The translations under genes were made by a program, and so were the position numbers. The notes under the pieces are model-generated. The model worked only from the letters and a program-made list of their open reading frames with translations. It did no database searches and was not told where the DNA came from. Source: Octopus vulgaris (taxonomy: Eukaryota). From it: a stretch of 64,000 bases of DNA. Shown one piece after another: positions 867 to 64,000 of the stretch (positions are counted from its first letter, which is position 1; each line of letters begins with the position of its first letter). The DNA lies in the NCBI GenBank assembly GCA_951406725.2, contig OX597833.1, positions 29,760,001 to 29,824,000 on the forward strand, written 5' to 3'.

Positions 867-1635
867 ATGTTGTTTGATGTGGAAACACTGTCCGCTTCAA
901 GTGACGAAGATTCGCCTTCAAGTGAAGCAGGTTTGCCTGCAGTTAAAGTCATCGAAGGTTCGCCTTCAAGTGTAGCTGTGTCTGCAGCTAAAATTATTGA
1001 AGGTTCACCTTTAAGTGAAGCTGTGCTTGCAGCTAAAGTTATCGAAGGTTCGCCTTCAAGTGTAGCTGTGTCTGCAGCTAAAATTATTGAAGGTTCGTCT
1101 TCGAAAGGAAAACAAGCTAAAACATACAACTTCGCAGCCGCTGCTGGACGGAAGAGGGAAGAGATTAAAATGGAGGACATAGAATATGAAAAATACAAAA
1201 ATATGTTTGTAAGGGAGGGGAATAATATAAAAGCCACCCTTCTAGAAGAAATTAAAAATGAAACACAAAGAAGGATAGTGATTTACAAATCATTTGTAAT
1301 AAAAGAGAAAAAATTGAAAGAGTAACAAAAGAACAGGCAGAGAAGTGCCTGCAACCAATATAGCAAGACATAGACTTTGTGACATGGGGCAAAAAGTACG
1401 CCACAATAATGGTATATTTTAAGAGCGAGCAAATGGCAAGAAAGCACTCGCTAACCTCAATTAAGGCGAGTAATATTCTTCTCTTGCCTTCCTATTTGGG
1501 GCGGAGGTCCGCCAAAATAAGAATCGAGGACATACCTCCAGAAATCGAGGTAAAGTGGTTGCTTCCAGCCTTACTAATAGGGCTGGAAGAAAAAATAAGT
1601 GTTATAGCGATAACAAAGATCAGGATGGAAAACTT
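867..1635 (+). pseudogene. Tx1 ORF1, frameshifted/stopped and C-terminally replaced
   Basis: ORFs 867-1325 and 1379-1765 are in different frames. The RRIVIYKSF / TWGKKYATIMVYF segment resembles the minus-strand ORF1 remnant at 38230-38400. Confidence 0.65.
907..1100 (+). repeat. 45-bp coding tandem repeat (about 4 copies, EGSPSSVAVSAAKII)
   Basis: Unit aaggttcgccttcaagtgtagctgtgtctgcagctaaaattattg repeats in frame with alternating variants. Confidence 0.9.
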
Positions 1636-1822
1636 GAAGCCAAACACATGGGTTGCATTGTCAGGGCTAGACAACGTGCAATGGGGAGCGAAGGAATTAA
1701 TGCCGCGAGATGGGCCCGAGTGGTGGAAGCCCAACGTGGCAACGATGCCACAATTCGATCTTTGACAAACCAACAAGGTAAGTTGATAGACAAGCCCGAG
1801 GAGATGTGTGAAGCTTTTCAGG

Positions 1823-4800
1823 TCGTCGTTGATTTGACGTTCAGTAGTCGTAAGACAATCAGGCTGGATGCGGTTTACGCACACCACAGTCAAGGGGAAC
1901 AAAGTGATTACTTTCGGAACCTTGGAAAGTTTCTGAGTACATCGCATCCTTTAGTTGTTTTAGGAGACTTCAACACAGTCTACGATGTGCGGGTAGACTG
2001 TGAGGGCTCGCGAACAGATAGGAAAGGAAATGCTTGCTTCCAGGATCTACTAAGACGTTTCGAGCTGGTAGATCCATATAGACTGGAACATCCGAATGCT
2101 CCATTGTGGACATGGTCAAACAGCGACGGATCTATCAAGTCGTACATAGACAGGATATTAATTAGAAAAGTAGATAAGAAATTAGCTAGGAGTCCACAGC
2201 TCCACATGGTCAGCTACAGTGACCACAAGATGGTCACCTGTAGGCTAGACATAGATAAGACGAATAGAGGTCCTGGTTACTGGAAACTTAATACATCCCT
2301 TTTGGCGATTAAGGAGTACAGTGACAGGATAAGGTTAATGATTCAGAGGGCTTTAACCGGAACCATAATTAACAACAAATGGTGGTATGCCCTCAAGCGA
2401 GCCATCAGATATGAGTCCATTAGATATAGTATAGATCTAGTTGCTAGAGAGGCTAGAAGGGAATCAGCACTAGTTAAGGACTTAGAGGAAGCAATGCGAA
2501 CTGGCACGGCAGCCCAGGTGAAGGTCAAGAGACTGGTTTTAAACCAGCACCTCGAAGCCAAACACATGGGTTGCATTGTCAGGGCTAGACAACGTGCAAT
2601 GGGGAGCGAAGGAATTAATGCCGCGAGATGGGCCCGAGTGGTGGAAGCCCAACGTGGCAACGATGCCACAATTCGATCTTTGACAAACCAACAAGGTAAG
2701 TTGATAGACGAGCCCGAGGAGATGTGTGAAGCTTTTCAGGACCACTTCGCCCAGCTCTTTGGGGGGAGCGGCGGACCGGATAGGAGGAGGGGCCTAACGG
2801 AGCTCCTTGACGGGCTGCCGCGCCTCTCGGAGCAGGACGCAAAGTGTAGTGAGGAGCCGATCACGCCTGGGGAAGTAATAGAGGCCATGGCTGACTGTGG
2901 CGCGGGTAAGGCGCCAGGACTGGATGGTCTACCCTACGAGCTTTATAAAAGTATGCCGGACTTGTTCGGGGACTTACTGGCGAACGTCTACACGAACTGG
3001 CAGTAGAATGGGTTTATTCCCAGATCTGTGCGCCGGGGAGTGGTGACACTAATCAGGAAGGACCCGGACAAGGGGGATGTCATTGATAATTTTAGGCCCA
3101 TCACTCTGCTTAACGCAGAGCTGAAGATTTTGGCCAAAGTGTTATCAAACAGATTGGCGCGTGTCGTGGATGGACTAATAGGGAAGGCACAAACGTGTGC
3201 CGTACCTGGCAGGTCTATTCAGGATAATCTCCATCTAATCAGATACACTATAGAGGGAATTAATAGCGATCCCAGCAAGGGAGGGGCAGTGGTCCATTTA
3301 GACCAATCAAAAGCTTTCGATAGGGTCGACCATCATTACCTGATGTCTGTTCTGGCTCAGTTCGGCCTGGGTCTTGGCTTCCTCAGGTGGATCATCGAAA
3401 TGTACGATAACGTCAACTCGGTAGTTCGGGTGAACAGCTTTATTTCTAAACCGTTCAGAGTCAAATGCTCGGTTCGTCAAGGATGCCCACTCTCCCCGCT
3501 TTTGTATGTAGTGGCTCTCGAGCCGCTGCTGCAAAAACTGAGTGGCATCCCGAGGCAGCCAGGTCGTGGAATGTCGGTTTTGGCGTACGCGGGTGACATC
3601 ACTATCATCGTGACTGAAGTGGACCTCCTACGTAAAGTAGGCAAGGCCATAGAGGTTTACGAGACGGTGACAGGAGCAAAAGTTAATCGCGAAAAGTCAG
3701 TTGGCTTGCAACTCGGCACCTGGAGAGGCAAGTCGATGCTTCAGACAGCGTCGTGGGACGTTGGACGGAGGGTCCGATTAAGTTGCTCGGGGTTTGGTTT
3801 GGACCAGACCTCCAAATAGAGAAGAACTGGAGCAAGGTATCGAGCAGGGTGGCTGCAGTAGCCAAGACCTGTAGGGCGGAGGTAGCCAATGTGTTTATCG
3901 CATCGGTGATCACCTACCGCCTTACCGTCGTGCCTTGCCCGGATTCGTGGTTGACCAAGTTGGAAAGACAGCTCTTTCACTTTTTGTGGAAGAGCTCAAA
4001 ACCACTTGTGAAACGCTCTGTTTGTTGTCAAAAACCGTTAAAGGGTGGACTAGGGATGCGCAGAAATGCGCTGAGGTTAAGGCATCTGTGGCTCCATCTG
4101 GATGGTGAACGGGTGTGGTCTCCGTTGGCGAAACAGATGTTTCCCAAGTTCACCAGTTTTGGTGGACGGGAAGCCTGGTATAATCGCAGATCGAAGTTGG
4201 ATACATGGTATACGGAGTGTCGCAAGGCACTCCGACTATTCCGTCGCTCGGGCAATGCTTGCGGCAGTGGTTCTACCACTGTTTTCTATAGAGGGTTTGT
4301 AGAGGCCGGTTGCGATGATACATTAGGGGAAACCCTAGGTTTCAACGATAATCAGCTGGCCAGTCTGTTCCAACGTACATTTGGGCCGAGGACCCTGGAT
4401 AATTTTCAGAAGTCCTTGGCTTGGCAGTGTTACCGAGAAGCCTTACCTGTTCGGGATAAACTCACAAGGCACGGTGGCCAAGTCAGCCCGACCTGCCCGA
4501 GGTGTGGGCGAGACAGGGAAACTGTCTCATATGCGGTTGTGCAGTGCTCAGAGGTGGCAGACATGTGGGTTTTTGCCGAACAACTGTTGTCAAGTGGAGG
4601 AAGAGTACAGCTATCGACTGAATCCATTGTAAAAATTGACCCACCGGATTTCTTAACGAAAGAAGGTAAGAATTGTTTTCTCTCTGTGGTTTCAATTGCG
4701 AAACAGGCAGTATGGAAGATGAGGATGAAAGGGGTGATAGCAGGCAACTTCATCTCTGGTTCTAGTCTGGTGGAATATTTTAAATTCCACCTAAAAAGAC

Positions 4801-5027
4801 AAATAGAACTAGAGAAGAGGGGCCTGAGTAAGAAAGTGTTCGATGAAAGATGGAAGAATGTTGTGAGTAAAAGGACCCTCATGAATAAGCCAGAAAAAAA
4901 AAGAAAAAAAAAACCTAAGGTCAGTGTCGAGGCGGGGTTCGTGGGGTCCGTAAGCCCGCCTCACTCCATCTGTGAAATTGTTTGTGTAAAAAATGTCCTA
5001 TCATCCGAATTATATAATCATTTGTAA
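1823..5027 (+). pseudogene. Tx1 ORF2 (APE endonuclease-RT-zinc finger), inactivated
   Basis: In-frame TAG at 3004-3006, frameshift near 3740-3755, YADD changed to YAGD, and the N-terminus of the endonuclease is missing. Confidence 0.9.
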
Positions 5028-12359: not shown

Positions 12360-14208
12360 ATGAATAGGAGGGGCAGTGTGAATCACCCAGAAAACTTTTG
12401 TTAACTCTGTGGAAAATTTGCTCCATGTGACTAGCAGAGGAACATTGCCACCAAATTAAAAATTGCCTATAAATATTATTTTGGATGTAAAGTTGGTGAT
12501 AAATACAAGAGGTGGGTACTTCATATATGTTACACCATGTGTTACTCAGGGTTTACACAGTGGCTGAATGGAAAATGGAAGGGAATGCCTTTTGCTGTAC
12601 CAATGGTATAGCATGAACCAACCAATCATGTCTCTGATTGTTACCTTTACATAACTAATATTAGTGGTTTCTCAAAGAAGACCAAAGCAAAAGTTGTGTA
12701 TACAGATTTTAAGTCGGCTCTGAAACTGGTCCCACATGACTTTGAGAACCCTATCCTAGTTCCCCTCTCACATGCTTCACTTGAAAATCTTGACATGTCA
12801 CATGATGAACCCCCTGACTCTCTTATCAACGAAAATGAGCCAGGCTAGTTTAATCAAGAAAATTTAAACGATTTAGTAAGAGACCTAGCATTGTCAAAGG
12901 AGAGGGCAGAAGTTTTGGGATCCAAACTACAACGGAATCTCCTACAGCAAAGTATGAAAATTTCCATTTTCTGTTCTTGCCATAAAGGCTTACTTGTCTT
13001 TTTCAAACAAGAAAATAATGCTTGTTTCTGTACTAATGTTAATGCACTCATTCAAAAACTAGGACACATGCATGTGGCTAATGAATGGAGATTGTTTATA
13101 GACTCAAGTAAGGTTAGACTCAAAGCTGTGTTGTCACATAATGGTAATGAAAAACCTTCCACTCCTGTGGGTCAGGTTGTCAGTATGGAAGAAATTTATG
13201 AATTGATGGAACTCATTCTGAAAGGAATTAACCCTTTCGTTACCAACCCGGCTGAAACCGGCTCTGGCTCTTTAGTACAAATGTCTGGTTTTCAAAAGTT
13301 CTGAATTAAAACCTTCCACCAAACCTTAGTCACAATTTATGTCCCTAACTCTACCTTAATGATAACGATGTTATTTTACTTAATTCTTTGTTATATTTAA
13401 CATAATTGGAAGAAACACTAAGCATCTCAAAATAAATTCAGTAACGAAAGGGTTAATTACTCAGTTCACAAGTGGAATGTTTGTGGTGATTTAAAGGTGA
13501 TTTCCCTCCTCCTAGGACTGCATCTGGGACATACCAAAAGTATGTGCTTCTTGTGTATTTGGAACAGCCATGACAACAGCAATCATTACACTGTAAAAAA
13601 CTGGCCTAAAAGAGATGAGCGCTTAGTTGGACAGTACAATGTGCAGCATATGCCACTGGTAGACCCACAAAAGATCTTCCTTCCACCCCTTCACATCAAA
13701 TTCGACTTCATGCAAAACTTCATAAAAGCAATGAGACACAATAGTTGTGGCTTCTAGTACCTAAAAGTAAAATTTGGTGCAGAGAAAAATGACACATAAC
13801 TGAAAGCAGGCATTTTCGTTGGAACCAAGATCTGATAGCATATTCAGAGGTAAACTGAATCCAGTTGAGCTGACAGCATGGGATTCATTCATGTTAGTTG
13901 AAAAGAATTTTCTTGGAAATCATAGAGATGAAAACTATGCTGATTTAATAAACAACATACTAACAGCATATGAAAGAATGGGATGCCGAATGTCCCTTAA
14001 AATACATTTCTTGCATTTTCATCTTGATTTTTTTCCAATGAATCTTGGTAATGAGCATGGTGAGGGGTTCCAACAGGACATATCTGACATAGAAACGAGG
14101 TATCAAGGCCGGTTCAATCCACACATGATGGGTGACTACAGCTGGTTCCTACAACAGTAGACCAGCATAACGCATAAACCCGAGTGCAAGTGTCTCAAAC
14201 ATTTCTGA
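12360..14208 (+). pseudogene. Chapaev3-like transposase, multiple stops/frameshifts
   Basis: Motifs YFGCKVGD..W..HIC...C, EPTNHVSDCY (Chapa zinc finger), WRLFIDSSK, VCGDLKV, CFLC.W, LPPLHIK, EHGEGFQQDI. Confidence 0.8.
13228..13456. mobile_element. piggyBac-like MITE inserted in the transposase at TTAA
   Basis: Perfect 12-bp TIR ccctttcgttac/gtaacgaaaggg with TTAA on both sides; the transposase continues on each side. Confidence 0.9.
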
Positions 14209-15558: not shown

Positions 15559-15840
15559 GTTTGTGCATATATGTATGTGTGCATATGCATATATACATTC
15601 CTCATGTGTGTGCAGATTAGTTTTGACATAACTGTAATAACTGTATGATATATTGATATATTGATAGTAAAATTACTATCCTTATAACTTTCAAAAATAT
15701 CTGTATATATATTATATTCTATATTCTATGTACTATCTGTTGTGAATAACAGAATGCGTCTAATATTAATAATATTAGTAATAACTGAATATTATATATG
15801 CTTATGGATGTAGATATGTATGTATGTATATTTCAGTATA

Positions 15841-15874
<34 letters not shown>

Positions 15875-15993
15875 AGTATTTATGTACATCTATATATGTA
15901 TGTATATTTATATCTATATATATAAATATTCAAATGTGTGTGTATTTTATTTATTTATATTTATATTTATTATAACTTAACATTATGTATTGT

Positions 15994-16122
15994 ATAATCT
16001 CTGACGAAGCCTAGAGGTATATACAAGTACCTCATGTTCATCTACTTATTACTTCAGTCCACCTGAGTAATAAAGGTAGAATGAGGTATTTTTATCTATT
16101 GGCTGAAACAGCTGTAAGTTAT
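15994..16122 (+). ncRNA. Type I hammerhead ribozyme with 97-nt stem II, in a ~630-bp AT-rich element (~15875-16505)
   Basis: ataatct-CTGACGA(16001)-agcc...ggct-GAAA(16105)-cagctg-TA-agttat. Stem II interior pairs taga/tcta, tacctcat/atgaggta, tctac/gtaga, ttattact/agtaataa. Predicted cut after GUA at 16116. Confidence 0.85.
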
Positions 16123-16503
16123 TTTCCCAATATATATTCATGTTTTTTATAATAATTACTGGTATCCTTATATATTACTATATTTTATATCTTATATTTT
16201 ATATGTAAAGAATAATTGTATGTATATTATTGTAATTATCAGTTTAGTAAATAAATAAATAAGTTAACATAATATAATGTCTAAAAGTTGATGAACCACT
16301 TATTGATCTCCTCCATTTTCTTATTGGTCTATAAATTAATAGTAAAATATCTCTTTACCTTCACCCGTTTAGTATACTAGGTAATGTAATTGTAATGCAA
16401 TAAAAAACACTTGTGTATTAATAATTGGGTATTCTACCAGCAGTATATTAGATAGATATTATCCCTTAGTGGGTTGGATTCACAACCTCTAACTTTCTTG
16501 GAG

Positions 16504-16557
<54 letters not shown>

Positions 16558-16608
16558 AATATTAAATTTCTAAATATCTCATAGAGATATGTACGGTGGT
16601 GGGGCGAT

Positions 16609-16899
16609 AGAGTGGTTGTATACTGTCAACTTAACGTGACAGTAAGGGAATTACACCACCGCTGTTTAGCCCTAGGAAGCATCGACGTTTCCTGTCAGCC
16701 TCGACCACCGCTGTTTAGCCGTAGGAAGCATCGACGTTTCCTGTCAGCCTCGACCACCGCTGTTTAGCCGTAGGAAGCATCGACGTTTCCTGTCGGCCTC
16801 GACAAATGTGTCGAGGCTGACAGGAAACGTTGATGCTTCCTAGGGCTAAACAGCGGTGGTGTAATTCCCTTACTGTCACGTTAAGTTTACAGTATACAA

Positions 16900-16906
<7 letters not shown>
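16609..16906. repeat. Foldback palindrome with three 49-bp tandem units in the left arm
   Basis: agagtggttgtatactg...gcctcgaca-aatg-tgtcgaggc...cagtatacaaccactct; tandem units at 16657, 16706 and 16755. Confidence 0.95.
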
Positions 16907-20935: not shown

Positions 20936-20938
<3 letters not shown>

Positions 20939-21671
20939 TAACAATATAGGATGAAGTCCCTTTCTCTACAGAAAAGGATTCCAGCAAAAAGCGTGGTAGT
21001 ATATTAAAAAACCATTACGGTTGAAGTATAAACATCTTATAATTAAGGGCTAAAGAAGATTATTCTATAGCCAATACACTGATTCCTGCTTTCAGTTAAA
21101 TTTTCCTGTAACAAGTGGATTATAAGTGGATAAATCAGTGTATTGGCTATAGAATAACCTTCTTTAGCCCTTAATTATAAGATGTTTATACTTCAACCGT
21201 AATGGTTTTTTTTAATATACTGCCACGCTTTTTGATGGAATCCTTTTCTGTAGAGAAAGGGACTTCATCCTATATTGTTAGTAGTAAACTCACTGCTTGT
21301 TACAAGGGGACCGGTAACCATTACAATATGTAGCGGCGACAGGTCAACACGTTGTTCTGAGACTGACCAAGAAATTTTTATTTTTAGATATAAATGATGT
21401 ACTTAAATGTAGTTGTGTTTTTAGCTTCTGCTTTTTCCATGATCACATGTGAGTATTTTATTTATGTTCCCTCGTAAGCTCTACTGATGAAGAATATATC
21501 CTTTATAGGGATTAATTCCGAAATTGATTCAATATAGAGATAACAAAATTTAAATTTTCTAAAGGTTAGTTGCCCGCTTTCAGTTCAATTTTCCTGTAAC
21601 AAGTGGATTATAAGTGGATAAATCAGTGTATTGGCTATAGAATAACCTTCTTTAGCCCTTAATTATAAGAT
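20936..21671 (+). mobile_element. Non-autonomous Penelope-like/retrozyme-like element with direct and inverted terminal repeats
   Basis: 99-bp direct repeat at 21085-21183 and 21573-21671 (period 488); ~150-bp inverted repeat at 20936-21084 and 21133-21283; internal hammerhead; (TA)n on both sides; no ORF. Confidence 0.8.
21479..21539 (+). ncRNA. Type I hammerhead ribozyme
   Basis: ctcta-CTGATGA(21484)-agaat at atcctt tat agggat ta attcc-GAAA(21520)-ttga t tcaa-TA-tagag. Perfect 5-bp stem I; AUA triplet with predicted cut after 21534; first stem II pair is A-C. Confidence 0.85.
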
Positions 21672-29176: not shown

Positions 29177-30830
29177 CAGTAGAACCTCACAGTATGAGTG
29201 CACCATTGTACGAGTAATTTGCTGTATGAGCTGAGGCTGGTGCAAATTTTTGTCTTGAAGTATGAGTGGAAATCCGCAACGCAAGTGAGTTTCATACAAG
29301 TAACTGCTAGTTGGCACTGAGCTTGCACATGCTCTCCCAACAAGTACAGCCTCTGCTCACTCAGTTCATGTGTTTATCTCATTGTGACAGCATTCCTGTT
29401 GTGTTTTCCCAGTGTTTTTTTTAGTTTTGTGTGTTTTTTGCAATTATTTTATAATTAGCTCTTAGTCATGGGTCCTAAGAAGATTAGTGTAAAGGACAGT
29501 GCTGAGAAGAAAAAGCCGATTATGATAGAATTGAAGAAGGAAATCATCGATGAACATAAAAAAAGAGTGCGTGTAGTGAACATGGCAAGTCAGTGTGACT
29601 GAAGTACATTGATGATCTACATCATCCTGAAGAAAAAGGATGAGATCAAGGCCATTACAACAGCAAAGGATGTCTCCAGGCTCTTCAAGCAATTCACATA
29701 TGTCCAGATGGAAAAATTGCTTCTCCTACAGATCAATGATAAGCAACTTGCAGAGGAAATAATTACAGAGGCCATCATTTGCGAGAAAGCACAAGCACTA
29801 TATGGGGATCTCCTGAAGCAGAACCCTGGAACATCGACAGAGGAGACATTAGCAGATGTATTTAAGGCCTGTCATGATTGGTTCAATAATTTCATGAAGA
29901 GGACTGATGTTCAAAGCATTATCAGGTATGGAGAAGCAGCAAGTTCTGACATGAAGGCAGCTGAGGATTTTGTGTCTATTCTGTCAGCTCATTGCAGCTG
30001 AGTACATCACACAACAAATATTCAACTATGATGAAACTGGCCTTTTGGAAAAAAAAAATGCCCAGAAGAACATACATAATTGCAGAGGAGAAGGAAATGC
30101 CAGGCCACAAGCCTATGGCAGATAGGCTAACTCTCACCTTTTGTGCCAATGCGAGTGGAGACTTGAAGATTAAGCCACTCTATGTCTACCATTCCAAAAA
30201 TCCACAAGAATTCAAGTTGCACTAAATTCTGAAGGAGAAGCTGCAGTTCATGTGGAGGGCAAATGTTAAAGCCTGGGTTACCAGGCAATTCTTCACTGAG
30301 TGGGTCAACTCTCTCTTTGGACTATCAGCGAGAAAGTACCTTCTGGAGAATAATCTTCCTCTCAAAGTCCTCCTCATCCTCAACAATACTGCTGCTCACC
30401 TTCCTAACTTTTAAGATGATATCCTGGACAAATTAAAATTTATAAAAGTTCAATACCTTTCACGCAACACCACACTTATCTTGCAGCCCATGGACCAACA
30501 GGTGATTTCTGATTTTAAGAAATTGGACACCAAATACCTGTTTTGTCAGTGCTTTGAAGTCACTGAAAATACAAATATAACCTTTCATGAGTTTTGGAAG
30601 GAGCACTATAACATTGTTAACTGCCTGAAAACCATTGATATGGCCTGGCAGGGTGTAACAAGGGAAACACTGAATTCTGAATGGAGGAAACTATGGCCTG
30701 GCTACATATCCAAAAGAAACTTTGAGGGGTTTGAGTCTGAGACACTTGAAGTTGAGGAGATAGTGTCTCTTGGCAAGTCCATGGGCCTCAAGGTTGACCA
30801 TGGGGACATTAACAATCAGCTTTTTGTCTG
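29177..30830 (+). mobile_element. Tigger/pogo-family DNA transposon, 3'-interrupted, with a decayed transposase from ATG 29468
   Basis: TA|CAGTAGAACCTC left end; MGPKKISVK start; CENP-B-like HTH; motifs [33 protein letters not shown]. Confidence 0.85.
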
Positions 30831-32270
30831 ACACAATGTGGGTGACATCATCTCCAAATGCTTCCTAGTTCACACAGAATACCTCTCATTATCTCTAGTT
30901 TCCATGATAGTGGAAGAGTCAATACACACAGAGGAGAGAAGATGCAACAATCTTTATAAATTGAGTGTATGATACATAGTGGTTGTGATAGGTGGTCATT
31001 CACCCCAAGCAAAGAGCTGTCATTGTACATTGTGGAAATCCAGCTCCTGAAGATGTTACTGAAACTGACTGCTGTGTGGACTGCTGCCAAGTATTGGTGG
31101 TTGCTCTTATTAAAAGGTGGTCAGGGCTCCACCCCATGCCAGTTTCATTTCCTACCCTCTCATATCATTATGAGTGGAGGTTGTCATGGATTGATCTATA
31201 TGAGATGGTGCATGTTTCTGCATCACCAATCAGACCACCAATGGCAAATGCCAATCTATTTGTAAATACCTTGACTAAAATCTTGAAGTTTATGTTTAAC
31301 AAAGTTATGGATCAAACATTTTGAATTTGGTTCTCTTTGTTGCAGTCTTTTCGTAGTGCTATGCCCCTCAGCTCACAGAATTGAGGATTCTCCTGTTGCA
31401 GGAGAATCTGCTACCAGTTGCAGCAGATACATGTCAAGGGGGCCACAAATAAGTTTGTCATATGAATATAAAGCAGGTGCAGGAGCTGCTGTGTGATAAG
31501 TATCTTGCTTACCAACCACATGGTTCTGGGTTCAGTCTCACTGCGTGGCATCTTGGGAAAGTGTCTTCTACTATAGCCTCAGGCCGACCAAAGCCTTGTG
31601 AGTGGATTTGGTAGACGGAAGCTGAAAGAAGCCCATCGTATATATATATATATATGTGTGTGTGTGTATGTTTGTGTGTCTGTGTTTGCACCCCTAGCAT
31701 TGATGGACAACCGATGCTGGTGTGTTTATGTCTCCGATAGGCTTACAAAGAATAAGTCCTGGGGTCGATTTGCTCGACTAAAGGCAGTGCTCCAGCATGG
31801 CCGCAGTCAAATGACTGAAACAAGTAAAAGAGTAAAGAGTATATGATAGAATATTTAAACCAGGCAATTTGACCCCGCTGCAATTAGCCATTGTTTCCCC
31901 TATTTCCAAGGCTGTTATTGATTTTCTACCACACTCTACCTCCAGTGGCAAGAGCTGTGGCAGGCTGTCAAGTCAAGGTAGGCACTGAAATTCATCCTGT
32001 AACCTGGTGAGCCACTTATCCCAAACAGTCAAGCAAAGTGCCAATGAAAAGCTGCAGTCATCATCCTCATCATAGGCTACCAAAGACTGAATTGTAGCTT
32101 TGTCACAAAGTTGAATCTCTGTCACTTGGGCCCATAAAACAGCTTCCATTCCTTCATGATCCATCCCTGACAACACAGCAATTGTGCTTCATGTGGAAGA
32201 AGTGATTACATGTTACTCTCACCACATGCATGCTGGTTATGATGCCTTTCCTAAACACCTCTAATAAGTT
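30830..32270 (-). mobile_element. Degraded Tx1 ORF2 fragment split by a SINE
   Basis: EGMEAVLWAQVTE..CDKATIQSL matches EGINAARWARVVE..GNDATIRSL of the 591-5117 element; HQYLAAV...WISTMY...VNDHLSQP is an RT remnant. Confidence 0.7.
31475..31842 (+). mobile_element. Full-length tRNA-derived SINE with an internal microsatellite and CR1-like 3' tail
   Basis: Head ggtgcaggagctgctgtgtgataag...ggttcagtct; tail ggcagtgctccagcatggccgcagtcaaatgactgaaacaag plus (taaagag)n. Related pieces at 18000-18340, 19380-19810, 22315-22440(-), 39030-39240 and 48545-48700(-). Confidence 0.85.
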
Positions 32271-34650: not shown

Positions 34651-34881
34651 ATATTCTGTTGTGTCTGGGGAGAGTTATTTTCTTTTTGTGCCTTATAATA
34701 TAACACACTCACTGGTAAAATTTCTACTTTTTTTTCTTATTTTTTATTGAAAAGGTTGCAAGATGCAACGAAAATTTTAGGAAAATAAAAATAAGAAAAA
34801 GAAAGTGGAAATTTTACCGGTGAGTGTGTTATATTATAAGGCACAAAAAGAAAATGACTCTCCCCAGACACAACAGAATAT
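34651..34881. repeat. ~95-bp inverted repeat (foldback)
   Basis: atattctgttgtgtctggggagag...tttcttattttt versus aaaaataagaaa...ctctccccagacacaacagaatat. Confidence 0.9.
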
Positions 34882-42576: not shown

Positions 42577-45500
42577 TGTAATTTAATGATGCAGAGGTAA
42601 AATCAATGTATTCACACAACATACTTCTCGAGACTCCAAAATCTCCTCTCAACAACTCCTATCGACCGCTGTCTTAACCGATATGCTACTCTTTATAAGA
42701 GTTCAGCTAGTCCATTTTTCCAATCCCCCTTTGAGATTGACTTCCGTAGGAAGTTAATATTACTATTTTTATTTATTTTTATTTCTTCATATCTCCCTTT
42801 TTGAGATTTTCCTCCTAGAGTTTAATATTTCTTCCATTTATGCACTACTTCCAACCATTCTGTTTGTTTCCTATTTCTTGTGCTGCTATGCCTAGGTTTG
42901 ATTTTTTGTGGCGTTGGAACATCAAAGGTGTCATAGAACACTTCCATGGGTATCTCTTTTCTTTTTTCCGTATATTTATTTTTTAGCTGGTTTAAATATC
43001 TTTTCTGTTCTCATTTTTCATCTTTTATCATATATGTCATTTTGCCTATTCTTTATGTTACTACTCCATCTTCCCAACCTTGTCTTGTATTTTATATATA
43101 TTTTGAAAAACACTTTGTCACAGATATTAAAATGGTTTGTCATATTTTTAGTGTTTTCCCTATTTTTTTTCTTACTGGTAGCAGCTTGTTAAAAATTGAC
43201 ATTATTTTTCGAGCAAAAATTAGTTCTGTTGGCAACTTGCCTGAAAAAGTGCTTGGGTTTGGTGCTATCCTATAAACCCTCAAGAACTGTGCTGATGCTG
43301 TGTCATCAACTAGCCTGTTTCTTGATTTCTTTAATGCTCTTTTAAATGTAGTCATGAACCTTTCCACTTGCCCGTTTGATCTTGGGTGATACAGAGGAGT
43401 AGTGATATGTTCAACTGAGTACATCTTGCAAAAATTCTTAAATTCGTTCACCGTGAATTGTGTACAATTATCAGAGACTATGATATCCGTGACACTATAC
43501 CTAGCAAAAGTTCTTGCAGAAATTCCACTGTCACCGTGGGTGTCGGTTTTCTACATTTACACATTTCTGGTCATTTTGAAAAACTATCTACCACTATTAG
43601 ATAATATGATCAGTTTAACGGTCCTGTGAAGTCTTTGTAGTCTGAACCATGGAATATCAGTTTTGAGCCAAGGCTGAAATTTTATAGATGGTGATTTCAC
43701 TGCCAGAGCACAACCCCTGCAGGATTTTACCAACTTCTCAATATCTAGATCCATTTTTGGCCAGTAAACACATAACTCCTCATAAGCAACTTCATCCTAG
43801 AAATTCCAGCATATCCAGTGTGGAATTCCTTTAATATTCAACCTTGTAGTGAGGTAGGCATTACGACCCTCTGTGCATACATAAGCACATTATCATATAT
43901 CAAATACAAGTTCGAAACTGTGTTACATCCAGCCATGCATATATGTTTATTTGTTTCTTCTGATCTCACTATTTTTTTTTCATTTTTATGATAAACTCAT
44001 CCGTCGCTGCCTTAATTTTCATTTCCTCCAATGTCATGCACAACATTGCACAATATATTTTTTATTTCCTTTTTGGCTTTTAATATACTGTCACTCTATC
44101 TTCTAGTGGTTCACTGAATTTTGGTATTAACCTCGACAAACCATCTGCATGTCCCAATTTTTTTGATGGCAAATACTCCATTTTGAAGTAATTCAGTAGG
44201 ATCATTCCCCAGCACAGCAATCTGTTGGCTGCATGTGTGGGGATACCCGTTTTTGATCCAGAGATCAACAATAACGGGCAGTGGTCTGTCTGCAGACTGA
44301 ACCTTCTTCCATGTATAAATTTATGAAATTTTTTTACTGCAAATATGATGGTTAATGCCTCTTTTTCTATGAATGTGTTTATGAGTGTGTTGTGAAGGTT
44401 TAGCTGCAGCAAAATCTGAACCGGCAAGCATAATGTCCATAGTTTGTTGGAAAATGCCAGGTGCTACCTTTATACCAAAGGGGTGTCAATTAAATTTATA
44501 CAACCTTTTATGAGTATTTATTGTCAATAATTTTGAACATTCCTCACTAACTTTTACCTGCAAATATGTTTCAGATAGGCCCAACTTTGAAAAAAATTTT
44601 CCTCCATTCAACTTTGCGAACATTTCCTCCGGGCTTGGTAGTGGATAATTATATGGCATCAAACATTCGTTTAATCTCATTGAAAAATCAGCTCATACTC
44701 GGATTTTTTTTTTTTTCTTCTTGACATAAACTGTTGGGGACACCCATTTTGTGTAACCAATTTTTTCAATAAAGCCAAGCTTTCCAAGTCTATCCAATTC
44801 ATCATTGACTTGTTTCAACGCTGTGAAAGGTACCATTCCTTTTGGTTTAAATACCGGTATAGTGTTTTCTTTCACTTGAAACTTCGCCTCTGCTTTGGTG
44901 CAAAGACCCAATTCCTCAGAAAAAACTTCAGGTAAAATTTAAAAAAATTCTTTTTTTAGATCCTCCGATACCTTATTTGTACTGGCGGAAGAACCATTCA
45001 CATTTTTACAAAAATATATTGATGGGGAGGTCCCATAAGTTAAATAGTTCCATCCAGTCTGTTCCAAATAAATTTGTCATATTTTTCAACATAAAAACTT
45101 TGGCTCTCAATGTTTATCCACGAAATGAAGCATCACTAATCATTTCACTCATAAAATGCAATTTTTTTCCTGACTCAACTCATGCAACTTTCGAAGTTTC
45201 CTTTAATCTAGGTTTCCCTAATTTTCTCCATGTACCTGTATTAATTATTGTGATATCACTGCCCATATTTAATTGTAATTTGATATTCACATTATCCATT
45301 GTTGGGAACCTGTGGAAGAGGTAGACCCAGGAAAACCTGGGACGAGGTGGTGAAGCATGACCTTCGAACTTTAGGTCTCACTAAGGAAATGTCTAGAGAC
45401 CGAGACCTATGGAAGTATGCTGTGCGTGAGAAGACCCGGCAAGACTAGTCAGGCCATAACCCGTGGCCCCTACCTGGGACGTAGTCAGTCCTCCTGTGCA

Positions 45501-47870
45501 TACCTTCCTTCTTGTGACACTTATGAAGACCTGTTGAGGCAAGTGAAAATCAAATCAAAACAAATCAAAATAGATGAACATCAGTGGAATTGTATTCTTT
45601 GTGGTACCAGTGCCGGTGGCACACAAGAAAACCACCCAAACGTGGCCGTAGCCAGTACCGCATCGACTGGCCTCCGTGCTGTGGGCACAACAAACACCAT
45701 CCGATCGTGGCCGTTCGCCAGCCTCATCTGGCACCTGTGTCGGTGGCACATAAAGACACCATCCGAAGACCCGGCGACGTAGTCAGTCCACCTGTGCATA
45801 CCTTCCCTCTTATGACACTTGTGAAGACCTGTTGAGGCAAGTGTGTGACACTTGTGAAGACCTGTTGAGGCAGAGGCAAGTGTGTGACACTTTGTGAAGA
45901 CCTGTTGAGGCAGAGGCAAGTGTGTGACACTTGTGGAGACCTGTTGAGGCAAGTGTGTGACACGTGTGACACTTGTGAAGACCTGTTGAGGCAAGTGAAA
46001 ATCAAGATCAAACCAAATCAAAATAGATGAACATCAATGGAATTTGTATCTTTGTGGTTCCAGTACCGGTGGCACACAAGAAAACCATCCGAACGTGGCC
46101 GTAGCCAGTACCGCATCGACTGGCCTCCGTGCTGTGGGCACAACAAACACCATCTGATCGTGGCCGTTCACCAGCCTCATCTGGCACCTGTGTCGGTGGC
46201 ACATAAAAACACCATCCGAAGACCCGGCGACGTAGTCAGTCCACCTGTGCATACCTTCCCTCTTATGACACTTGTGAAGACCTGTTGAGGCAAGTGAAAA
46301 TCAAAATCAAACCAAATCAAAATAGATGAACATCAATGGAATTTGTATCTTTGTGGTTCCAGTACCGGTGGCACACAAGAAAACCATCCGAACGTGGCCG
46401 TAGCCAGTACCGCATCGACTGGCCTCTGTGCATACCTTCCTTCTTATGACACTTGTGAAGACCTGTTGAGGCAAGTGTGTGACACTTGTGTAGACCTGTT
46501 GAGGCAAGTGAAAATCAAAAATCAAAATCAAATCAAATCAAATCAAACTAAATCAAAATAGATGAACATCAATGGAATTTGTATCTTTGTGGTACCAGTA
46601 CCGGTGGCACACAAGAAAACCATCCGAACGTGGCCGTAGCCAGTACCGCATCGACTGGCCTCTGTGATGTGGGCACATAACAAACACCATCCGATCGTGG
46701 CCGTTCGCCAGCCTCATCTGGCACCTGTGTCGGTGGCACATAAAAACACCAACCGAAGACCCGGCAAGACTAGTCAGGCCATAACCCGGGGCCCCTACCT
46801 GGGACGTAGTCAGTCCACCTGTGCATACCTTCCTTCCTTCTTGTGACACTTGTGAAGACCTGTGAAGACCTGTTGAGGCAAGTGAAAATCAAATCAAATC
46901 AAATCAAAATAGATGAACATCAATGGAATTTGTATCTTTGTGGTACCAGTGCCGGTGGCACACAAGAAAACCATCCGAACGTGGCCGTAGCCAGTACCGC
47001 ATCGACTGGCCTCCGTGCTTTGGGGACGTAACAAACACCATCCGATCGTGGCCGTCCGCCAGCCTCATCTGGCACCTGTGTCGGTGGCACATAGAAACAC
47101 CATCCGAGCGTGGCCGTCTGCCAGCCTCGTCTGGCACCTGTGTCGGTGGCACATAAAAACACCATCCGAGCGTGGCCGTTCGCCAGCCTCGTCTGGCACC
47201 TGTGTCGGTGGCACATAAAATCACCCACTACACTCTCGGAGTGGTTGGCGTTAGGAAGGGCATCCAGCTGTAGAAACACTGCCAGATCTGACTGGCCTGG
47301 TGCAGCCTTCGGGCTCCCCAGACCCCAGTTGAACCGTCCAACCCATGCTAGCATGGAAAACGGACGCTAAATGATGATGATGATGATGATGATGGACACA
47401 AATTTTCTTTTCTGAGCTTCGCTTAGAATTTTTTTAACAATACGTTCTTTCTAGAATTTTTTCTTTTTTTGCTTGACCCTTTTTTTTTTGTTTCACTATA
47501 CAATGTGAACTTTTATGTCCGATTTTCCCACACTCAAAACATTTATGAATTTTGAAAGGACAATTACTTCTAAAATGTAAGCCTCCACACTCATAGCATG
47601 GAATTGGTCTTGACATTTGTTTTTCCTTTTTCTTATCGGTTTCAGGTCGACATGCATGTATCTGAGAGCAATCTTTTTCTTCAGTTTTATCCGCGTCATG
47701 TCTTAAATTTATAATCCTCTGGCATTCTTCAGCCTCTGCCTGTAGACTTAATTTTTGGTCTTGTTCTAATTTTGTTAATATATGGGAACATATATCAGCA
47801 TCTTTTCTTGCAATTAACCCTTGAACAAATATTAAACATTTGAACAAATCTGGGGTTAATTCATTTAATT
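42577..47870 (-). mobile_element. Gypsy (Mag-like) LTR retrotransposon, decayed, with 3' LTR
   Basis: Gag knuckles CYECGGLHFRSNC and CFECGKIGHKSSHC; protease LNMGSD; RT YPLP..EEMFAKL; RNase H EKEALTIIFAVKKFH; integrase YHPRSNGQVERF. PPT AAAAAGGGAGA (42802-42792) precedes an LTR at 42791-42577 ending TTACA. Confidence 0.88.
45302..47393 (+). mobile_element. RTE 3'-end insertion with a modular, tandemly amplified 3'UTR
   Basis: Starts with the RTE C-terminus (GRGRPRKTWDEVV) and ends in (GAT)n; five restarts of atcaaaatagatgaacatca (~45564, 46017, 46316, 46552, 46902); splits the Gypsy between gag and protease. Confidence 0.85.
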
Positions 47871-48946
47871 TGAATTCTTTACATTCTCTGTTAATGTAGC
47901 ACCAGCATGAGTGCTTTCTATGTGGCTTCCTATGTACAGTTTACATGGCACTGTAATGAGTGTTTTATATGGGGAACTAGCTTGAGTGCTTTTTACATTA
48001 TACCAGCACCGGCTGTAAAGGACTTTCCTGCATGCATGGATGACCATAGTTTTCCTTAGCTTAACAAGCCATAAATCTTCTCAAGCCATAAATCTCAGTC
48101 TCTTGTCATCTACTTAGTGAAGCCCAATATCTGGCAATCCTCTCTCATCACCTTGTCTCATGTCTTCCTGGAACAACTCTTTCCACAAGTTCCTTCCCCA
48201 ATTAGAGATAGGCACTTCTTTATGCAGCCGTCCTCATCCAAATGCATCACAAGACTATACCAGTGCAGTTTTCTCTCTTGCATGCAATATCATATAATTT
48301 CATCTAAAATAAACTTTTTCAAAAATCTTTAATTCTCCTATTAAAGGACAAAATGGAACAATTCTTTATCTGATTTCACTCACTGGATTGTGACCATGCT
48401 AGGATACTACCTTTTAGTTAATCATACCATCCCATTACTTATTTCAATCTAACACTTATTTATCAAGTGGCTAAGTTACTACATTTTTGACACAACAGTT
48501 TTTACACCAGTCAATTGTAAAATAGACACAGACAAACAAAAGCATACATGACAGGCTTCAGCACAGATATCATCAACCAAATTCCACTAATAAAATATTT
48601 ATCAAGCCAAAACTAATTATAAGACACTCACCTAAGGTGCTATGCAGTGGGATCAAACCTGGAATAATGAGTAAACTTTCTAATCCCACAGCTATCCTTG
48701 CACCTATAATGATCAAGTTTCTTTACTAGTTGTTCTATGATGCAAGTTCAAGCGACTAATATCACTGACTTATTTAAGGCAGTGAGCTGGCAGAATCATT
48801 AACACACTGGGAAAAAACCTTAGTGGCATTTTGTCTGTCTCTATGTTCTGAGTTCAAATTCTGCCGAGATCAACTCTGCGTTTCATCCTTGTGGAGTCGA
48901 TAAAAAAAAATACCAGTTGAGTACTGGGGTTGATGTAATCAACTTA

Positions 48947-51190
48947 GACTTAGACTGGTAGTCCACAACATAGACTGACTGGTAGTTAGTGACTTCAGGA
49001 TCAGGGCTAAATGGATGCTCAGAAGACGACCAGCAAGGAGAAGAAGGGTCTGGAGACTTAAAGATCCTGCAAATGGACAGAGATTTAGAGACATATTACT
49101 CAAAGTCTTTGATAAAATAGAAGGGGATATAGCTTCACATGGTATACAAGACAACTGGAGGTTCCTACGGGACAACCTGCTAAGGGCCACCGATCAGATC
49201 TGTGGATGGTGCAAAGTCCCCTCAAGACCCAAAATAATGTGGTGGTGGAACAATGTCGTTGACAAGGCCATTAGACAAAAGAAACAAGTTTGTAAGGACT
49301 GGAAGAACGGTGGTAGCAGGGAAGTATATCAGGCTGCCAGAAGGGAAGCTAGGAGGCAGGTTTATTTAGCCAGAGGGGAAGCAGATAAGAAAAAATTTGC
49401 CAATGTTCTGTGCCGTGAGGACCAAAGACTTGAGGTATTTTGTGTTGCAAGACAGTGTGTGAGAGAGAATCGTGATGTGGTAGGAGAGAAATGTGTTCGC
49501 ATGGATGACGGTTCACTTGCACTAAATGAGGATGCAAAGAGAGAGGTTTGGAGATGCCATTATGAAAGGTTGCTGAATAAAGAAAATGAATGGGAGAAAG
49601 AGAGTCTGCCGAATGTCGACCCAACAGAGGGACCAGCTATCCGAGTTGACAGTACCTTGGTAGATAAGGCAATTAGAAGTATGAAGACAGGGAAAGCTCC
49701 AGGCCCATCAGGAATTACTGCAGAGATGCTCAAAATATCTGGCAGTGTTGGCTATAGCCTAGTCACCCGTATAGTTAACCAGGTGATGCATGAAGGAGTC
49801 ATACTCAATGACTGGTGTAGTAGTATAATAGTCAACTGCTACAAAGGTAAAGGTGATGCTTTAGATACAAATAATTACAGAGGTATCAAGCTGTTGGATC
49901 AGATAATGAAAGTCACGGAGAGGGTCATAGCCCAACTGATTAGGAAGAGAGTCAGCTTGGATGAGATGCAGTTTGGTTTCGTGCCAGGGAAAAGCACCAC
50001 TGATGCCATATTTCTGGTAAGACAGCTGCAGGAGAAATACCTAGCCAAAGATAAGCCCCTGTACCTGGCTTTCGTTGACATGGAGAAAGCCTTTGACATG
50101 GTCCCCTGATCCCTTATCTGGGTCAATGAGGAAACTAGGGATAGATGAACGGTTAGTGAGAGCTGTGCAAGCCATGTACAGGGACACTGTAAGTAAGGTG
50201 AGGGTTGGCAATGAGTACACTAAAGAATTTAGGGTAGAAGTAGGGGTCCACCAAGGTTCAGTCCTCAGCCCCCTCCTATTTATCATAGTCCTCAAGGCAA
50301 TAATGGAGGAATTCAAGACAGGATGCCCTGGGAGCTCCTCTATACTGATGACCTTGCTTTAATTGCTGAGTCACTATCAGAACTAGAGGAGAAGTTTCAA
50401 GTGTGGAAACAAGGATTAGAATTAAAGGGCCTTAGAATCAACCTAGCTAAAACCAAAGTCCTAATAAGTAGGAAGGCAGGCAAACCACAAATCCCTTCAG
50501 GTAGATGGCCCTGCTCGATCTGTAGTAGAAGCATAGGTAGAAACTCTATAAGATGTACCCAGTGTAAGCTATGGACACATAAGAGGTGCAGTAATATCAA
50601 AGGAAGGCTAACTGGGAAGATAGTTTTTGTATGTGGCAGATGGTCGGGAGCAATAAACACTGAAATTGCGCAAAGACCAACTTCCGCCACATTCCAGGGA
50701 GAAAAACTAGAGTGTAAGTACCTTGAGAGAAAAGTTGGACCTAAGAAGCATTAGATGTGGTGTGCAAGAGAGACGACTGTGCTGGTATGGTCATGTGGTG
50801 AGAATGGATGAGGATAGCTGTGTGAAAAAGTGCCACACCCTAGCGGTTGAGGGAACCTGTGGAAGAGGTGGACCCAGGAAAACCTGGGATGAAGTGGTGA
50901 AGCACGACCTTTGAACATTAGGCCTCACCAAGGAAATGACTAGCAACCAAGACTTTTGGAAATATGGTGTGCTTGAGAAGACCCGGCAAGCCAAATGAGA
51001 TCATAACCCATGGCCTATGCCAGGAGCAAAACCAGCCCGCTTATGCGTACCTTTTCCTTCTTTGGTCTCTAAACTCTGCTTGCGAAGACCTGTTGAGGCA
51101 AGTGAAATCAAAATCGATGACTGGCATCCGTGCTAGCGTGGTGCAAAGAGCATGGAAAGCGGACGTTAAACGATGATGATGATGATGATG
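48947..51190 (+). mobile_element. 5'-truncated RTE LINE inserted in a MetaSINE-like SINE
   Basis: RT motifs NYRGIKLL, DMEKAFD, VHQGSVLSP, YTDD; PHD-like CSIC...CTQC..W.H; (GAT)n tail; TSD AACTTA at 48941-48946 and 51191-51196; frameshifts and an internal deletion near 50715. Confidence 0.92.
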
Positions 51191-57944: not shown

Positions 57945-57983
<39 letters not shown>

Positions 57984-58174
57984 TTTATGTTGACTGATGA
58001 TAGAGTATGGACGGATTTTTGAAGTCCAATGGTACCCTACACACATATTTGATTGTGGAGATTTACAAACACACTTTCTCAGTGAAACTCAATATACCCA
58101 CCATTATAGATAATACCAAATGTACATTTTCGGATTTTTCATAATGTGATGTAAGTCTTTGGTATAGCAATTGC

Positions 58175-58270
58175 ATGTGGCTGAAGAGAGCTTTAAACCA
58201 TCTGTTATGTCGATTATAGATTGATGTAAGAATAGGTTGTTGTATAAAGCTTGAAACACGTGTACCGCGA
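58175..58270 (+). ncRNA. Type I hammerhead ribozyme with 65-nt stem II, in element ~57982-58384
   Basis: gtgg-CTGAAGA(58181)-gagcttta...taaagctt-GAAA(58253)-cacgtg-TA-ccgc; predicted cut after GUA at 58264. Confidence 0.85.
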
Positions 58271-58384
58271 CATCCTTTGAGTTCTGTTTTTTATTTCATT
58301 TGATGCATATAACCTCTCACCTCTGCTACTAGTTGCCATATACAGGTGCTTACACTTATGTATTCACACTGAATTTATTGTACC

Positions 58385-59618
<1,234 letters not shown>

Positions 59619-59790
59619 GTATAGAAATTCGGGGTGAGTACTTGATAATTATAAGCACCTGTGTATACCGTTTCGTGGTGTAGGTGGTGGAGTAAATTGA
59701 TCAAAATAAAATAAAAACATGATGCGAAGGATTCAGCGGTACATATGTTTCGGGCCTTTATTAGACAGATTTATAACAATGCATAATGTA
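59619..59790 (-). mobile_element. Relative of the 57982-58384 element carrying only the 3' half of a hammerhead
   Basis: Minus strand aaaggccc-GAAA-catatg-TA-ccgctgaatcc...tatacacaggtgctta aligns with GAAA-cacgtg-TA-ccgcgacatcc...catatacaggtgctta. Confidence 0.7.
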
Positions 59791-59903: not shown

Positions 59904-62899
59904 TCATGGAGGCTTTCTAGCAACTGCTATTTGGTGCATGAGAGAGTTCGATGCAGCTGCCCTCATCTGCCCCTCCTGCCGTGAAGTTGGTTCATCTGGG
60001 ACACCTGACAGGAAGAGATCCAGCTTCATTTTAAAGACATCTGTATCCACCCCATGCAGGTCTCTCAGGTTCTTCGGGAGGATATTGAAGAGCTGTGGGC
60101 CTCGGAAGCCCAGGCTATCACAGAATCTTGTCCTACATCTTGATGGCAGGTTTGGAGTCCTAGGCACCACGCAGTGGCGCCCAGTTCTGGCATTTGCGTA
60201 ACTCTCGATGCCAAAGTTCAGGACACTTCCCTCCAGGATCTTCCAGATGTATATTATGGCATATCTTTCCCGCCTACGCTCCAGGGAATATAATTTTAAT
60301 CTCTTGAGTCTTTCCCAGTAGCTTACATTCTGCATAGAGGCTATCTTCTTTGTGTAGCTTCGTTGGATCGCCTCAAGTTCTGTGATCAACTTGACACTGG
60401 ATGGTGACCATAGCTGAGAGCAATAGTCAAAGTGGCTTAGGACAAGTGTCTTCCAGAGGACCATCATGGTTTCTTGTTCTCTTGTTCTAAAGGTTCTAAG
60501 AATCCATCCAGCCAGCCGTCTACATTTAATTGTCAGTTTAGCAACATGTACATGAAAGGTCGCGTCATCACTCATGTGAATACCCAGGTCACGCACTGAT
60601 TGTGCCTCTGGGATTGCAATCCCTCCGGGTCCAGTGTATTCATTGGGTATTGCATTCAGTTTTGCATGCTGATAGTATAAAGCTTGAAACTTTCCAGCAT
60701 TGAACTGCATGCTATTCTTTTCAGCCCACTTGTATATTTCGTCCAGCTCACATTGCAGGTGTTTAGTGTCCTCAGGGTTCTGTATTGCCTGTGAAACTTT
60801 TGTATCATCTGCATAACTTGTGATCGTGGCTCTCTGCGTGGCTGAGGGCATGTCTGAGAGGGCCATTATGAACAGTAGTGGTCCCAGAACAGTGCCCTGC
60901 GGAACACTGCTCACTATTTGTGTGTTAATGGAGGTGGCCCCATTGGCTACTACCACCTGACTTCTATCCTTCAGAAAGTCATGAAGCCATTCTCCCAGTT
61001 TTCCAACTATGTTGAGATCACGCAGTTTGTGACATATCATTCCATGATCGACTTTATCAAAGGCCTTTGCAAAGTCGAGATATATCACTTCCACATTTGA
61101 GTGGTTGAGCAGCCGTTTCAGCACCCAGTCATAGTGTTGTAGGAGCTGAGTTAAACAGCTTCTCCCTGGTCGGAAACCATGTTGGGTGTCGGGCAGCAAG
61201 TCATTCTCTTCAAGGAAGGTGATCAGCTTCCTTCTGACTATTCGTTCCATGACCTTGCTGATGTGTGAGGTCAGAGAGATAGGTCTATAGTTCTTGGCTT
61301 CCGCTCTGCTACCTCCTTTATGAATGGGGCATATTTTACCTTCCTTCAGTTTTCCTGGAAGTTTGCCAGCTGCAAGGAAGCTCTGAAAGAGGAACTGCAG
61401 TGGTCTTGCTAGGACTCTCTTACATGCTTTTAGGAGGATTGCCGGGAATCCATCGGGGCCAGTAGCTGAGTCTGTTTTCATTTCATCTATAGCCTTGGTT
61501 ACATCGTCTTCCTTTATATCGATGTAATCTATCGTCGCCGCCTCTGATTTTATATCTGCAGTGGTAAAAAAGTCAGTTGGATTGGTGATTTGGAGATGCC
61601 CAAGGGGTGGAGTGAAAACACTCTTGAATTGCTCATTCAGTATTTCACTTACTCTCATTGGTTTTCCTGTAAGTGTGCCATCCTTTTCGAGGAGTGGCCC
61701 TATTCTACAGTGCACTGTAGCTGTTTCTTTGGCATACCTGTAGAAAGCTCTGGGGTTAGATTTTATGTTTTCTATAGCCCAGGCTTCTTTGTCTGCTCTT
61801 TCTTTTTCATGGGAGAGTTGCAGACATTTTTCGATTTCCAACAGTTTTATTTTTAGGTGGGACTTTTCACTGCTTTCAATCTGTTTGTTTAGGCGATTTG
61901 AAAATTTCGTACGCCGTCTCATTAAAATTTTCCTCTCTCTGGGGATTTTGTTCTTGTGTACAGTGGCCTTTCTCTCTGGGACACATTTGTAGCATATGGC
62001 TTGCATTACAGACATGAATTGTTGAAGTTTCACGTCGATGTCTGGCGAGGAGAGACATTTAGGCCAGTTTTGTTTGAGGATCTCTTTCTCAATTTGTTTC
62101 CAGTTTGCCTTATGGTAGTTCAAGCTGGAAAGATTTTGAGGTTTCTTGTAGGCTGCATGTCCGTGCTCTCTTTTGGCCCGTACATGGTCAGCTCTATCAT
62201 GTTGTGATCCGAGAGTAGTGTCGGTGTCACTTTCACATTATGGATGAGATCCATGTCATTTGTGAAGCAGAGATCCAGTGTGTTACCTGCCCTGGTTGGT
62301 TGGAGTATTACCTGCTCCATGTACAGGGTGTTGATGAGGTTCAGGAGGGACCTCGCCTGTCCTCGTTCACATCTTGTCATTCCTGGGAGAGAAAGGCCCT
62401 CGGGCCATCTGACATTGGGCAGATTGAAGTCTCCCATAAGAAGCACACCTATGTGTTGTTCTAATGTGGTTAGAATTTCTTCTATTTTTATAAGGCAGTC
62501 TTCAAACTTGCCCACATGGCTTGGGGCATCTGGAGGGCGATATGTAGCACACACAACTACATCAAGTTGCCTAATATGTACAATTAGTGTGTCACACACC
62601 GAGTTTGAGTATGACAAGAGGACCTGGGGTGTGAGGTCCTCACGGATGTACATAGCAACACCTCCATGACTCCTTTCTTTCCTGTCGGTCCGTACTACAG
62701 CATACTGTGGTATGTGTAACTCCGCATCTGCTATGTCCGGTTTCAGGTGCGTTTCTGTAAGTGCTATGCATAAGGCTTGATTGCATGCAACAAAGTCTCT
62801 CAGGAACGGGATCTTTGTCCTGTTACTGAGTGTTTGCAGTCCTCTGATGTTCAGTAGGAGTATCGAGGTGAGGTGTACGTTGTTGCCGGTGGTGTCCAT
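59904..62899 (-). CDS. LINE ORF2 (APE endonuclease + RT) with a single frameshift near 62120-62145
   Basis: LLNIRGL, LTETHL, YRPP, GDFNLP, TLDL, SDH; NYRPISLTS, DFAKAFDKV, PQGTVLGP, YADD, VPDEP. The likely start is ATG 62899. Confidence 0.85.
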
Positions 62900-63762: not shown

Positions 63763-64000
63763 GCTGGATAATCTGTCTATCCGTTTATCTATCTAATTAT
63801 GTTCGAGAGAAGACAGGAAGATATTAAGGCTAATTAGAAGATAGAGTACTTGAAAAAGAAATATTAACAATATTAAAGTTTGTGTAAAAACGTTATTTGG
63901 GTAAAAACGTTATTTAATCTTAAGGCTAATTAGGGGATAGAGTATCTGAAAATGTATTAGCAATATTAATATTATATTAGAGTGTGGATAAAAACGTTGT

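Follow-up and report, generated by a model that had tools for sequence, protein, structure and literature searches.

Hammerhead ribozymes are recognised by a small core held by three helices. What should we make of a locus in which the core looks intact while one helix has grown into a 97-nt rod? We addressed this question in a window of 64,000 nucleotides (64 kb) of Octopus vulgaris DNA (contig OX597833.1, positions 29,760,001 to 29,824,000); all coordinates below are those of the window.

A type I hammerhead with a palindromic stem III

We read the motif as follows:

16001-16007, + strand: first half of the core, CUGACGA, from sequence reading
16105-16108, + strand: second half of the core, GAAA, from sequence reading
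16008-16104, + strand: stem II, a 97-nt rod of 36 bp, from folding; closed by A-U, G-C, C-G and C-G
16108-16115, + strand: palindromic stem III, 8 nt; 2 bp plus a tetraloop as a monomer, a predicted 8-bp duplex between two copies
16109-16114, + strand: cagcug, followed by U16.1-A17 at 16115-16116
15994-16000, + strand: 5' strand of stem I, which is also the 5' arm of a competing hairpin
16117-16122, + strand: 3' strand of stem I, pairing with 15994-16000 through 6 bp with one bulge
16116-16117, + strand: predicted cleavage site after A16116 (GUA), placed from the hammerhead consensus

The type I core (CUGANGA ... GAAA ... UH) is present, and no variant falls in it among the rows listed from the aligned contigs described below (40 of 111 variant rows). 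Three helices are found and stem I is open-ended, with a bulge; stem III has 2 bp in the monomer. Judged by its sequence and its modelled helices, 15994-16122 is a type I hammerhead. A preliminary description of this DNA had reported intact CUGACGA and GAAA-cagcug-UA halves separated by a 97-nt stem II, with GUA at 16114-16116, and we find each of these in its place.

That description overlooked that 16108-16115 is a perfect palindrome. The predicted energy of its self-duplex is -11.1 kcal/mol, and it has no stable hairpin by itself. A short palindromic helix III is known from animal type I hammerheads that act best as dimers (PMC4209133, PMC7229834).

Stem II is an exceptionally long rod

Folded alone, stem II forms a single closed rod at -33.2 kcal/mol (z -4.42) and none of 200 shuffles was as good. 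Bulges interrupt the rod, and no helix in it runs unbroken for more than 11 bp. The pairing probability of the distal rod was 0.91-1.0 in all allele sets that we folded, and the rod is the sole strongly folded part of the element in which it lies (z -3.1 to -5.5 versus -2.0 or weaker elsewhere). One helix proposed earlier, taga/tcta, is not in the register favoured by the energy model or by the alleles of other copies; both favour pairing of 16013-16019 with 16093-16099.

We scanned the window with a descriptor consisting of the core, a stem II of at most 150 nt closed by 4 bp, GAAA, a palindromic stem III and 2 bp of stem I. It matched twice in the 64-kb window, at 16001 and 58181, and never in 600 dinucleotide shuffles, a result that flatters both motifs because the descriptor was devised after seeing them. 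With a z of -4.42 for its rod and 0 matches in 600 shuffles, the motif is beyond chance.

Rfam gave no match on the window at the gathering score, and the 40 matches up to E 10 include no hammerhead family; the weak matches are miRNA-type, to microsatellites and a palindrome. The lack of a hammerhead match is expected because the insertion is so long, and hammerheads are not defined biochemically by an Rfam match. In the published min-HHR descriptor, stem II may have no more than 7 bp and a 10-nt loop, or ~24-26 nt (PMC4209133 supplement), about a quarter of the 97 nt found here. The earlier point that standard descriptors would miss this motif thus holds.

The length of the rod, which had been called exceptional, is borne out by comparison. 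Stem II measures ~12-25 nt in Hydra elements by our own count of PMC8557442 File S2, where the longest that we counted is 54 nt (PLE-X1_sMoe), and the "long helix II" of viral hammerheads means 6-8 bp (PMC13725137). We found no description of a natural stem II of 97-nt size in the literature searched, a coverage that is incomplete, since supplements and subscription papers may hold cases. The element class itself is already known.

The hammerhead heads a multi-copy repeat flanked by TA

Contigs from four public runs, which carry the species labels A-D, were aligned to 15900-16520 with a likeness threshold of 80%. The numbers of contigs aligned were 3292, 3126, 2139 and 1151 for labels A-D, with allele patterns alike across the four labels. 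Because these contigs cover ~15980-16510, we place the hammerhead motif at the 5' end of a multi-copy repeat:

15975-16504, + strand: solo copy of a ~530-nt non-coding, retrozyme-like multi-copy repeat; 5' edge +/- ~15 nt
16325-16335, + strand: approximate shorter 3' end in other copies, with loose ends running into TA-like letters
15808-15971: degenerate TA-rich microsatellite, the left flank
16505-16553: (TA)24 tract, the 3' junction

The repeat holds no ORF of 50 codons wholly inside it, and the 64-kb window holds no second copy. Loose ends of the contigs enter TA-like letters near 16325 and near 16500, which gives two 3' ends. The shorter one was found in 23, 21 and 11 contigs in X1, X3 and X5, respectively, with a consensus agreement of just 0.54-0.57, and its TA run is clearest in X3. 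Strand inversions make up 6 of the 15 joints listed, out of 24. No end-to-start joint occurs among the same 15 of 24 (15900-15980 left out), and no tandem copy or circle of this repeat was seen in the window or in the aligned contigs.

Depth in X1 climbs from 5' to 3', from 4,657 at 15984-16004 through 65,060 at 16089-16109 to 341,855 at 16446-16466; depth is not copy number, and the low 5' values may reflect divergence instead of truncation. The aligned contigs show no depth rise or step at the cut site itself. The repeat thus has Penelope-type traits, of which the (TA)n flanks and the inverted joints were seen and 5' truncation is suggested by depth. Penelope-like elements (PLEs) are described in PMC8557442 as targeting (TA)n and leaving inverted copies truncated at the 5' end, and 26 of 27 Hydra-clade rows in its File S1 list (TA)n, including Hydra-1_Obim. 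The two 3' ends, the inversions and the depth rise therefore fit Penelope-type insertion. No Penelope ORF lies beside this copy, and no GIY-YIG domain was found in the 7 of 50 long window ORFs that we scanned with Pfam.

We also searched metagenome and viral contigs. The exact repeat pattern had no match in the metagenome contigs; a relaxed pattern listed 120 loci there (~180 estimated) and 10 in viral contigs. None of the 131 metagenome and viral pattern matches passed a filter for the rod and stem I, which the window copy passes. Two of them, L057 and L127, were examined and discarded as relatives. Since 0 of 131 passed, there is no sign of spread beyond this animal lineage in these collections, which hold little animal DNA.

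Other copies mostly retain the rod

We wondered whether the rod is kept among copies, as the preliminary description required of it. The contig alignment provided 40 listed variant rows out of 111, with unphased alleles, and 17 of the 40 lie within 16008-16122, none of them in the core, the stem II base or the palindrome. Three of the 17 are at unpaired places and 14 at paired places. Eight of the 14 alleles still pair with the partner in this copy (null P 0.039; two of these pairs were picked after the alleles were known), one pairs only if its partner changes too, and five disrupt a pair while the rows listed (40 of 111) include no change in the partner. When only MFE-paired positions are scored, 4 of 12 alleles create Watson-Crick pairs (P 0.0016), and all three G-U pairs of the rod have a Watson-Crick allele in other copies.

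Because the alleles mostly keep pairs and turn G-U into Watson-Crick, the rod of the relatives is more perfect than that of this copy. The alleles are not proof of compensatory selection, since they are unphased and two of the common ones, those at 16017 and 16095, would be incompatible on the same molecule; 16057/16063 is the one possible double change among the rows listed. Thus, the claim of a conserved hairpin stands insofar as alleles mostly retain or improve the rod, and falls short of proven compensatory covariation.

The window copy is predicted to misfold

The lowest-energy fold of this copy is not the hammerhead. It contains instead:

15990-16026, + strand: competing hairpin that hides stem I and the CUG of the core; predicted, with probability 0.77-0.99

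In this hairpin, 15990-16003 pairs with 16012-16026, and the predicted probability of the stem II base in this copy is 0.009-0.23. The common allele at 16098 accounts for ~70% of depth; allele sets that carry it gave a stem II base probability above 0.9 in 11 of 16 cases, versus 0.23 for this copy. All five common alleles combined still misfold, with probabilities of 0.24, 0.014 and 0.0 in three fragments. In the model, the balance between the active and the core-hiding fold is fine and depends on allele linkage. This solo copy has a few pairs missing and carries the predicted core-hiding hairpin, so its ribozyme probably cuts poorly.

Two further hammerheads lie in TA-targeted elements

The window contains two more elements with hammerhead motifs:

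58176-58269, + strand: second type I hammerhead, with a 65-nt rod as stem II and a palindromic stem III, in the TA-flanked element 57980-58385
20937-21671: two-armed insertion in (TA)n, with an inverted repeat at 20937-21282

In the 58181 motif, the rod has a z of -4.11 and stem I is 5 bp long. Its element, flanked by TA, could not be meaningfully aligned with the first one, to which it is unrelated in sequence, and the motif has an alternative fold that differs from that of the first motif. In the insertion at 20937-21671, a direct repeat (21085-21183 = 21573-21671) delimits a unit of 488 nt, and the stem II of the hammerhead at 21484 is 29 nt long, with a mismatch at its base. The three hammerhead elements have neither terminal redundancy nor shared ends among them. 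The 97- and 65-nt rods and the 21484 motif show that a long stem II is a recurring design among TA-targeted elements here.

Discussion

We consider it fairly likely (probability about 0.62) that this protein-free repeat is a retrozyme-like element copied by the enzymes of a Penelope-like retrotransposon, with a ribozyme that would likely cut best as a dimer. This reading starts from what the DNA directly displays: the core, the rod, the palindromic stem III, the repeat nature and the TA flanks. The repeat would be transcribed from the + strand, and two hammerheads, joined by the palindrome, would cleave after GUA. The cut would yield a unit-length RNA that may circularise. A Penelope-type enzyme would then nick (TA)n and begin copying the RNA at either of two 3' points. 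For the long stem II, the most likely role is that of a structural arm in this self-paired RNA, keeping the halves of the core together at a place where the usual contact between loop 1 and loop 2 seems absent.

Animal non-LTR retrozymes (Cervera and de la Peña 2020, PMC7229834; bioRxiv 10.64898/2026.07.22.740005) are similarly non-coding and of many copies with a GC content below 50%, and they share the type I hammerhead, the palindromic helix III of 2 bp plus a tetraloop and the commonness of solo monomers. They differ in stem II, which is ~4 bp there and 97 nt here (PMC7229834). Expressed retrozyme circles are 170-400 nt long (PMC7229834), versus at least 530 nt for this element; retrozyme consensus lengths of 51-972 bp (bioRxiv 10.64898/2026.07.22.740005) span the latter value. 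The absence of a tandem copy among the sequences seen counts against a retrozyme, because tandem units define retrozymes. Li, Clavereau and Pollet (bioRxiv 10.64898/2026.07.22.740005) describe retrozymes as non-autonomous PLE derivatives that are often solo monomers, and report that 8 of 9 retrozyme dimers tested did not cleave. The neighbour at 20937-21671, with its 488-nt unit and inverted arm around a hammerhead, may be counted for the retrozyme-like reading.

The hammerheads of PLEs, in particular those of the Hydra clade (PMC4209133, PMC8557442), are also of type I, with a larger-than-usual helix II and no clear loop-loop contact. They share the palindromic or near-palindromic helix III, the (TA)n targets and the inverted truncated arms. 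Unlike them, the stems II described here are 97 and 65 nt long and almost fully paired, and no ORF is linked to them here. Is the element then simply the 5'-truncated 3' end (pLTR or 3' UTR) of an autonomous PLE and no separate non-coding RNA? PLE terminal repeats do bear type I hammerheads with a palindromic stem III, and most of their genomic copies are solo truncations. Moreover, U at 11.1, which is common in Hydra-clade hammerheads (PMC8557442), is present in both long-stem motifs. However, ~390 nt of non-coding DNA follow the cut site, and the hammerhead of Hydra-1_Obim lies ~100 nt or less from the end. No coding remnant of an autonomous PLE adjoins this copy, and the three hammerhead motifs of the window are not in the available consensus files of PMC8557442. 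We therefore regard a truncated PLE end as rather unlikely.

The rod might alternatively be a selected regulatory part, either a folding switch that holds back the cut until the arm has been transcribed in full or a binding site for a helper enzyme, ADAR or Dicer. By prediction, a single allele can tip the fine balance between the active fold and the core-hiding one, and the X7 loose-end consensus (9 contigs) retains the 6-bp centre of the competing hairpin, both of which would suit a switch. A regulatory part would also agree with rods of 97 and 65 nt in two unrelated elements, and with a rod that is the sole strongly folded region. The two motifs do not share a switch design, since the alternative fold of the 58181 motif differs. 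The preliminary description had thought of the extension as a possible protein-binding site or ADAR/Dicer substrate. An uninterrupted helix of at most 11 bp speaks against ADAR and Dicer, and the letter changes do not have the pattern of hyper-editing: this copy has G where others have A at 10 of 69 G, and the mirror class amounts to 4 of 72 C. We found no support for these roles and do not think that the rod is a dedicated ADAR or Dicer substrate. Overall, we hold a regulatory rod to be improbable.

A wider form of the switch would make long-rod (65-97 nt) hammerheads a recurrent, undescribed Penelope-mobilised architecture that escapes the descriptors now in use. Here, the rod would be a selected co-transcriptional switch, with a hairpin hiding the core until the rod displaces it and thereby timing cleavage to multimeric transcripts. 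We offer this proposal as a speculation that we doubt.

Least of all do we expect a dead ribozyme whose loop 2 gained the rod as a neutral fold-back insertion by template switching, or a motif that is a chance match: a decaying, formerly more perfect hairpin would likewise give G-U pairs with Watson-Crick alleles and could leave the single possible double change seen, yet the core is free of variants among the rows listed, the descriptor matched none of the 600 shuffles, the rod and stem I filter passed the window copy and none of the 131 matches, and the design recurs in a second family.

A structural arm within a retrozyme-like element thus remains our preferred reading of the rod. The motif recalls the discontinuous Clec2 hammerheads of mammals (PMC2950038), where a large helix insertion likewise hides the motif from standard patterns. 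The search that found these (Martick et al. 2008, via PMC2950038) allowed insertions in loop 1 or loop 3 and covered mRNA 3' UTRs; by contrast, the present insertion makes stem II a rod and belongs to a mobile repeat. In the literature, animal hammerheads and retrozymes have been counted with descriptors that assume a short stem II; the presence of two unrelated long-rod motifs within a single 64-kb window suggests that a class has gone uncounted. A natural hammerhead able to carry a 97-nt stem II with no obvious loop-loop contact would be a simple test of the role of peripheral structure in cleavage. The same element would also test what a passenger RNA must offer for a Penelope enzyme to copy it.

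Other repeats in the window

Directly 3' of the repeat, with (TA)n on one side and (CT)n(TA)n on the other, 16554-16905 is a fold-back element, one arm of which holds three tandem copies of 49 nt that are 98% alike. We considered it as a dimer partner of the hammerhead and ruled it out: it contains CUGA and GAAAC-GUC words but no canonical core, and it has no similarity to the hammerhead repeat. An inverted repeat of ~230 bp (86% alike) lies at 34651-34881, and scanning it found no hammerhead. Directly 3' of the second hammerhead element, 58385-59623 is a 1.2-kb TA-rich microsatellite.

The frames at 29603-30831 (+), 43140-47940 (-) and 12849-14160 (+) include a Tc5/DDE_1 transposase remnant and a weak rve integrase match (Pfam). 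The last of these had no Pfam match in the part scanned; we take it to resemble a Chapaev-type transposase remnant. LINE-type retrotransposon ORFs occupy 59904-63792 (-), 1474-5027 (+) and 48979-50754 (+), with Pfam matches to RVT_1 in a 777-codon frame and at 48979 and to Exo_endo_phos at 1474.
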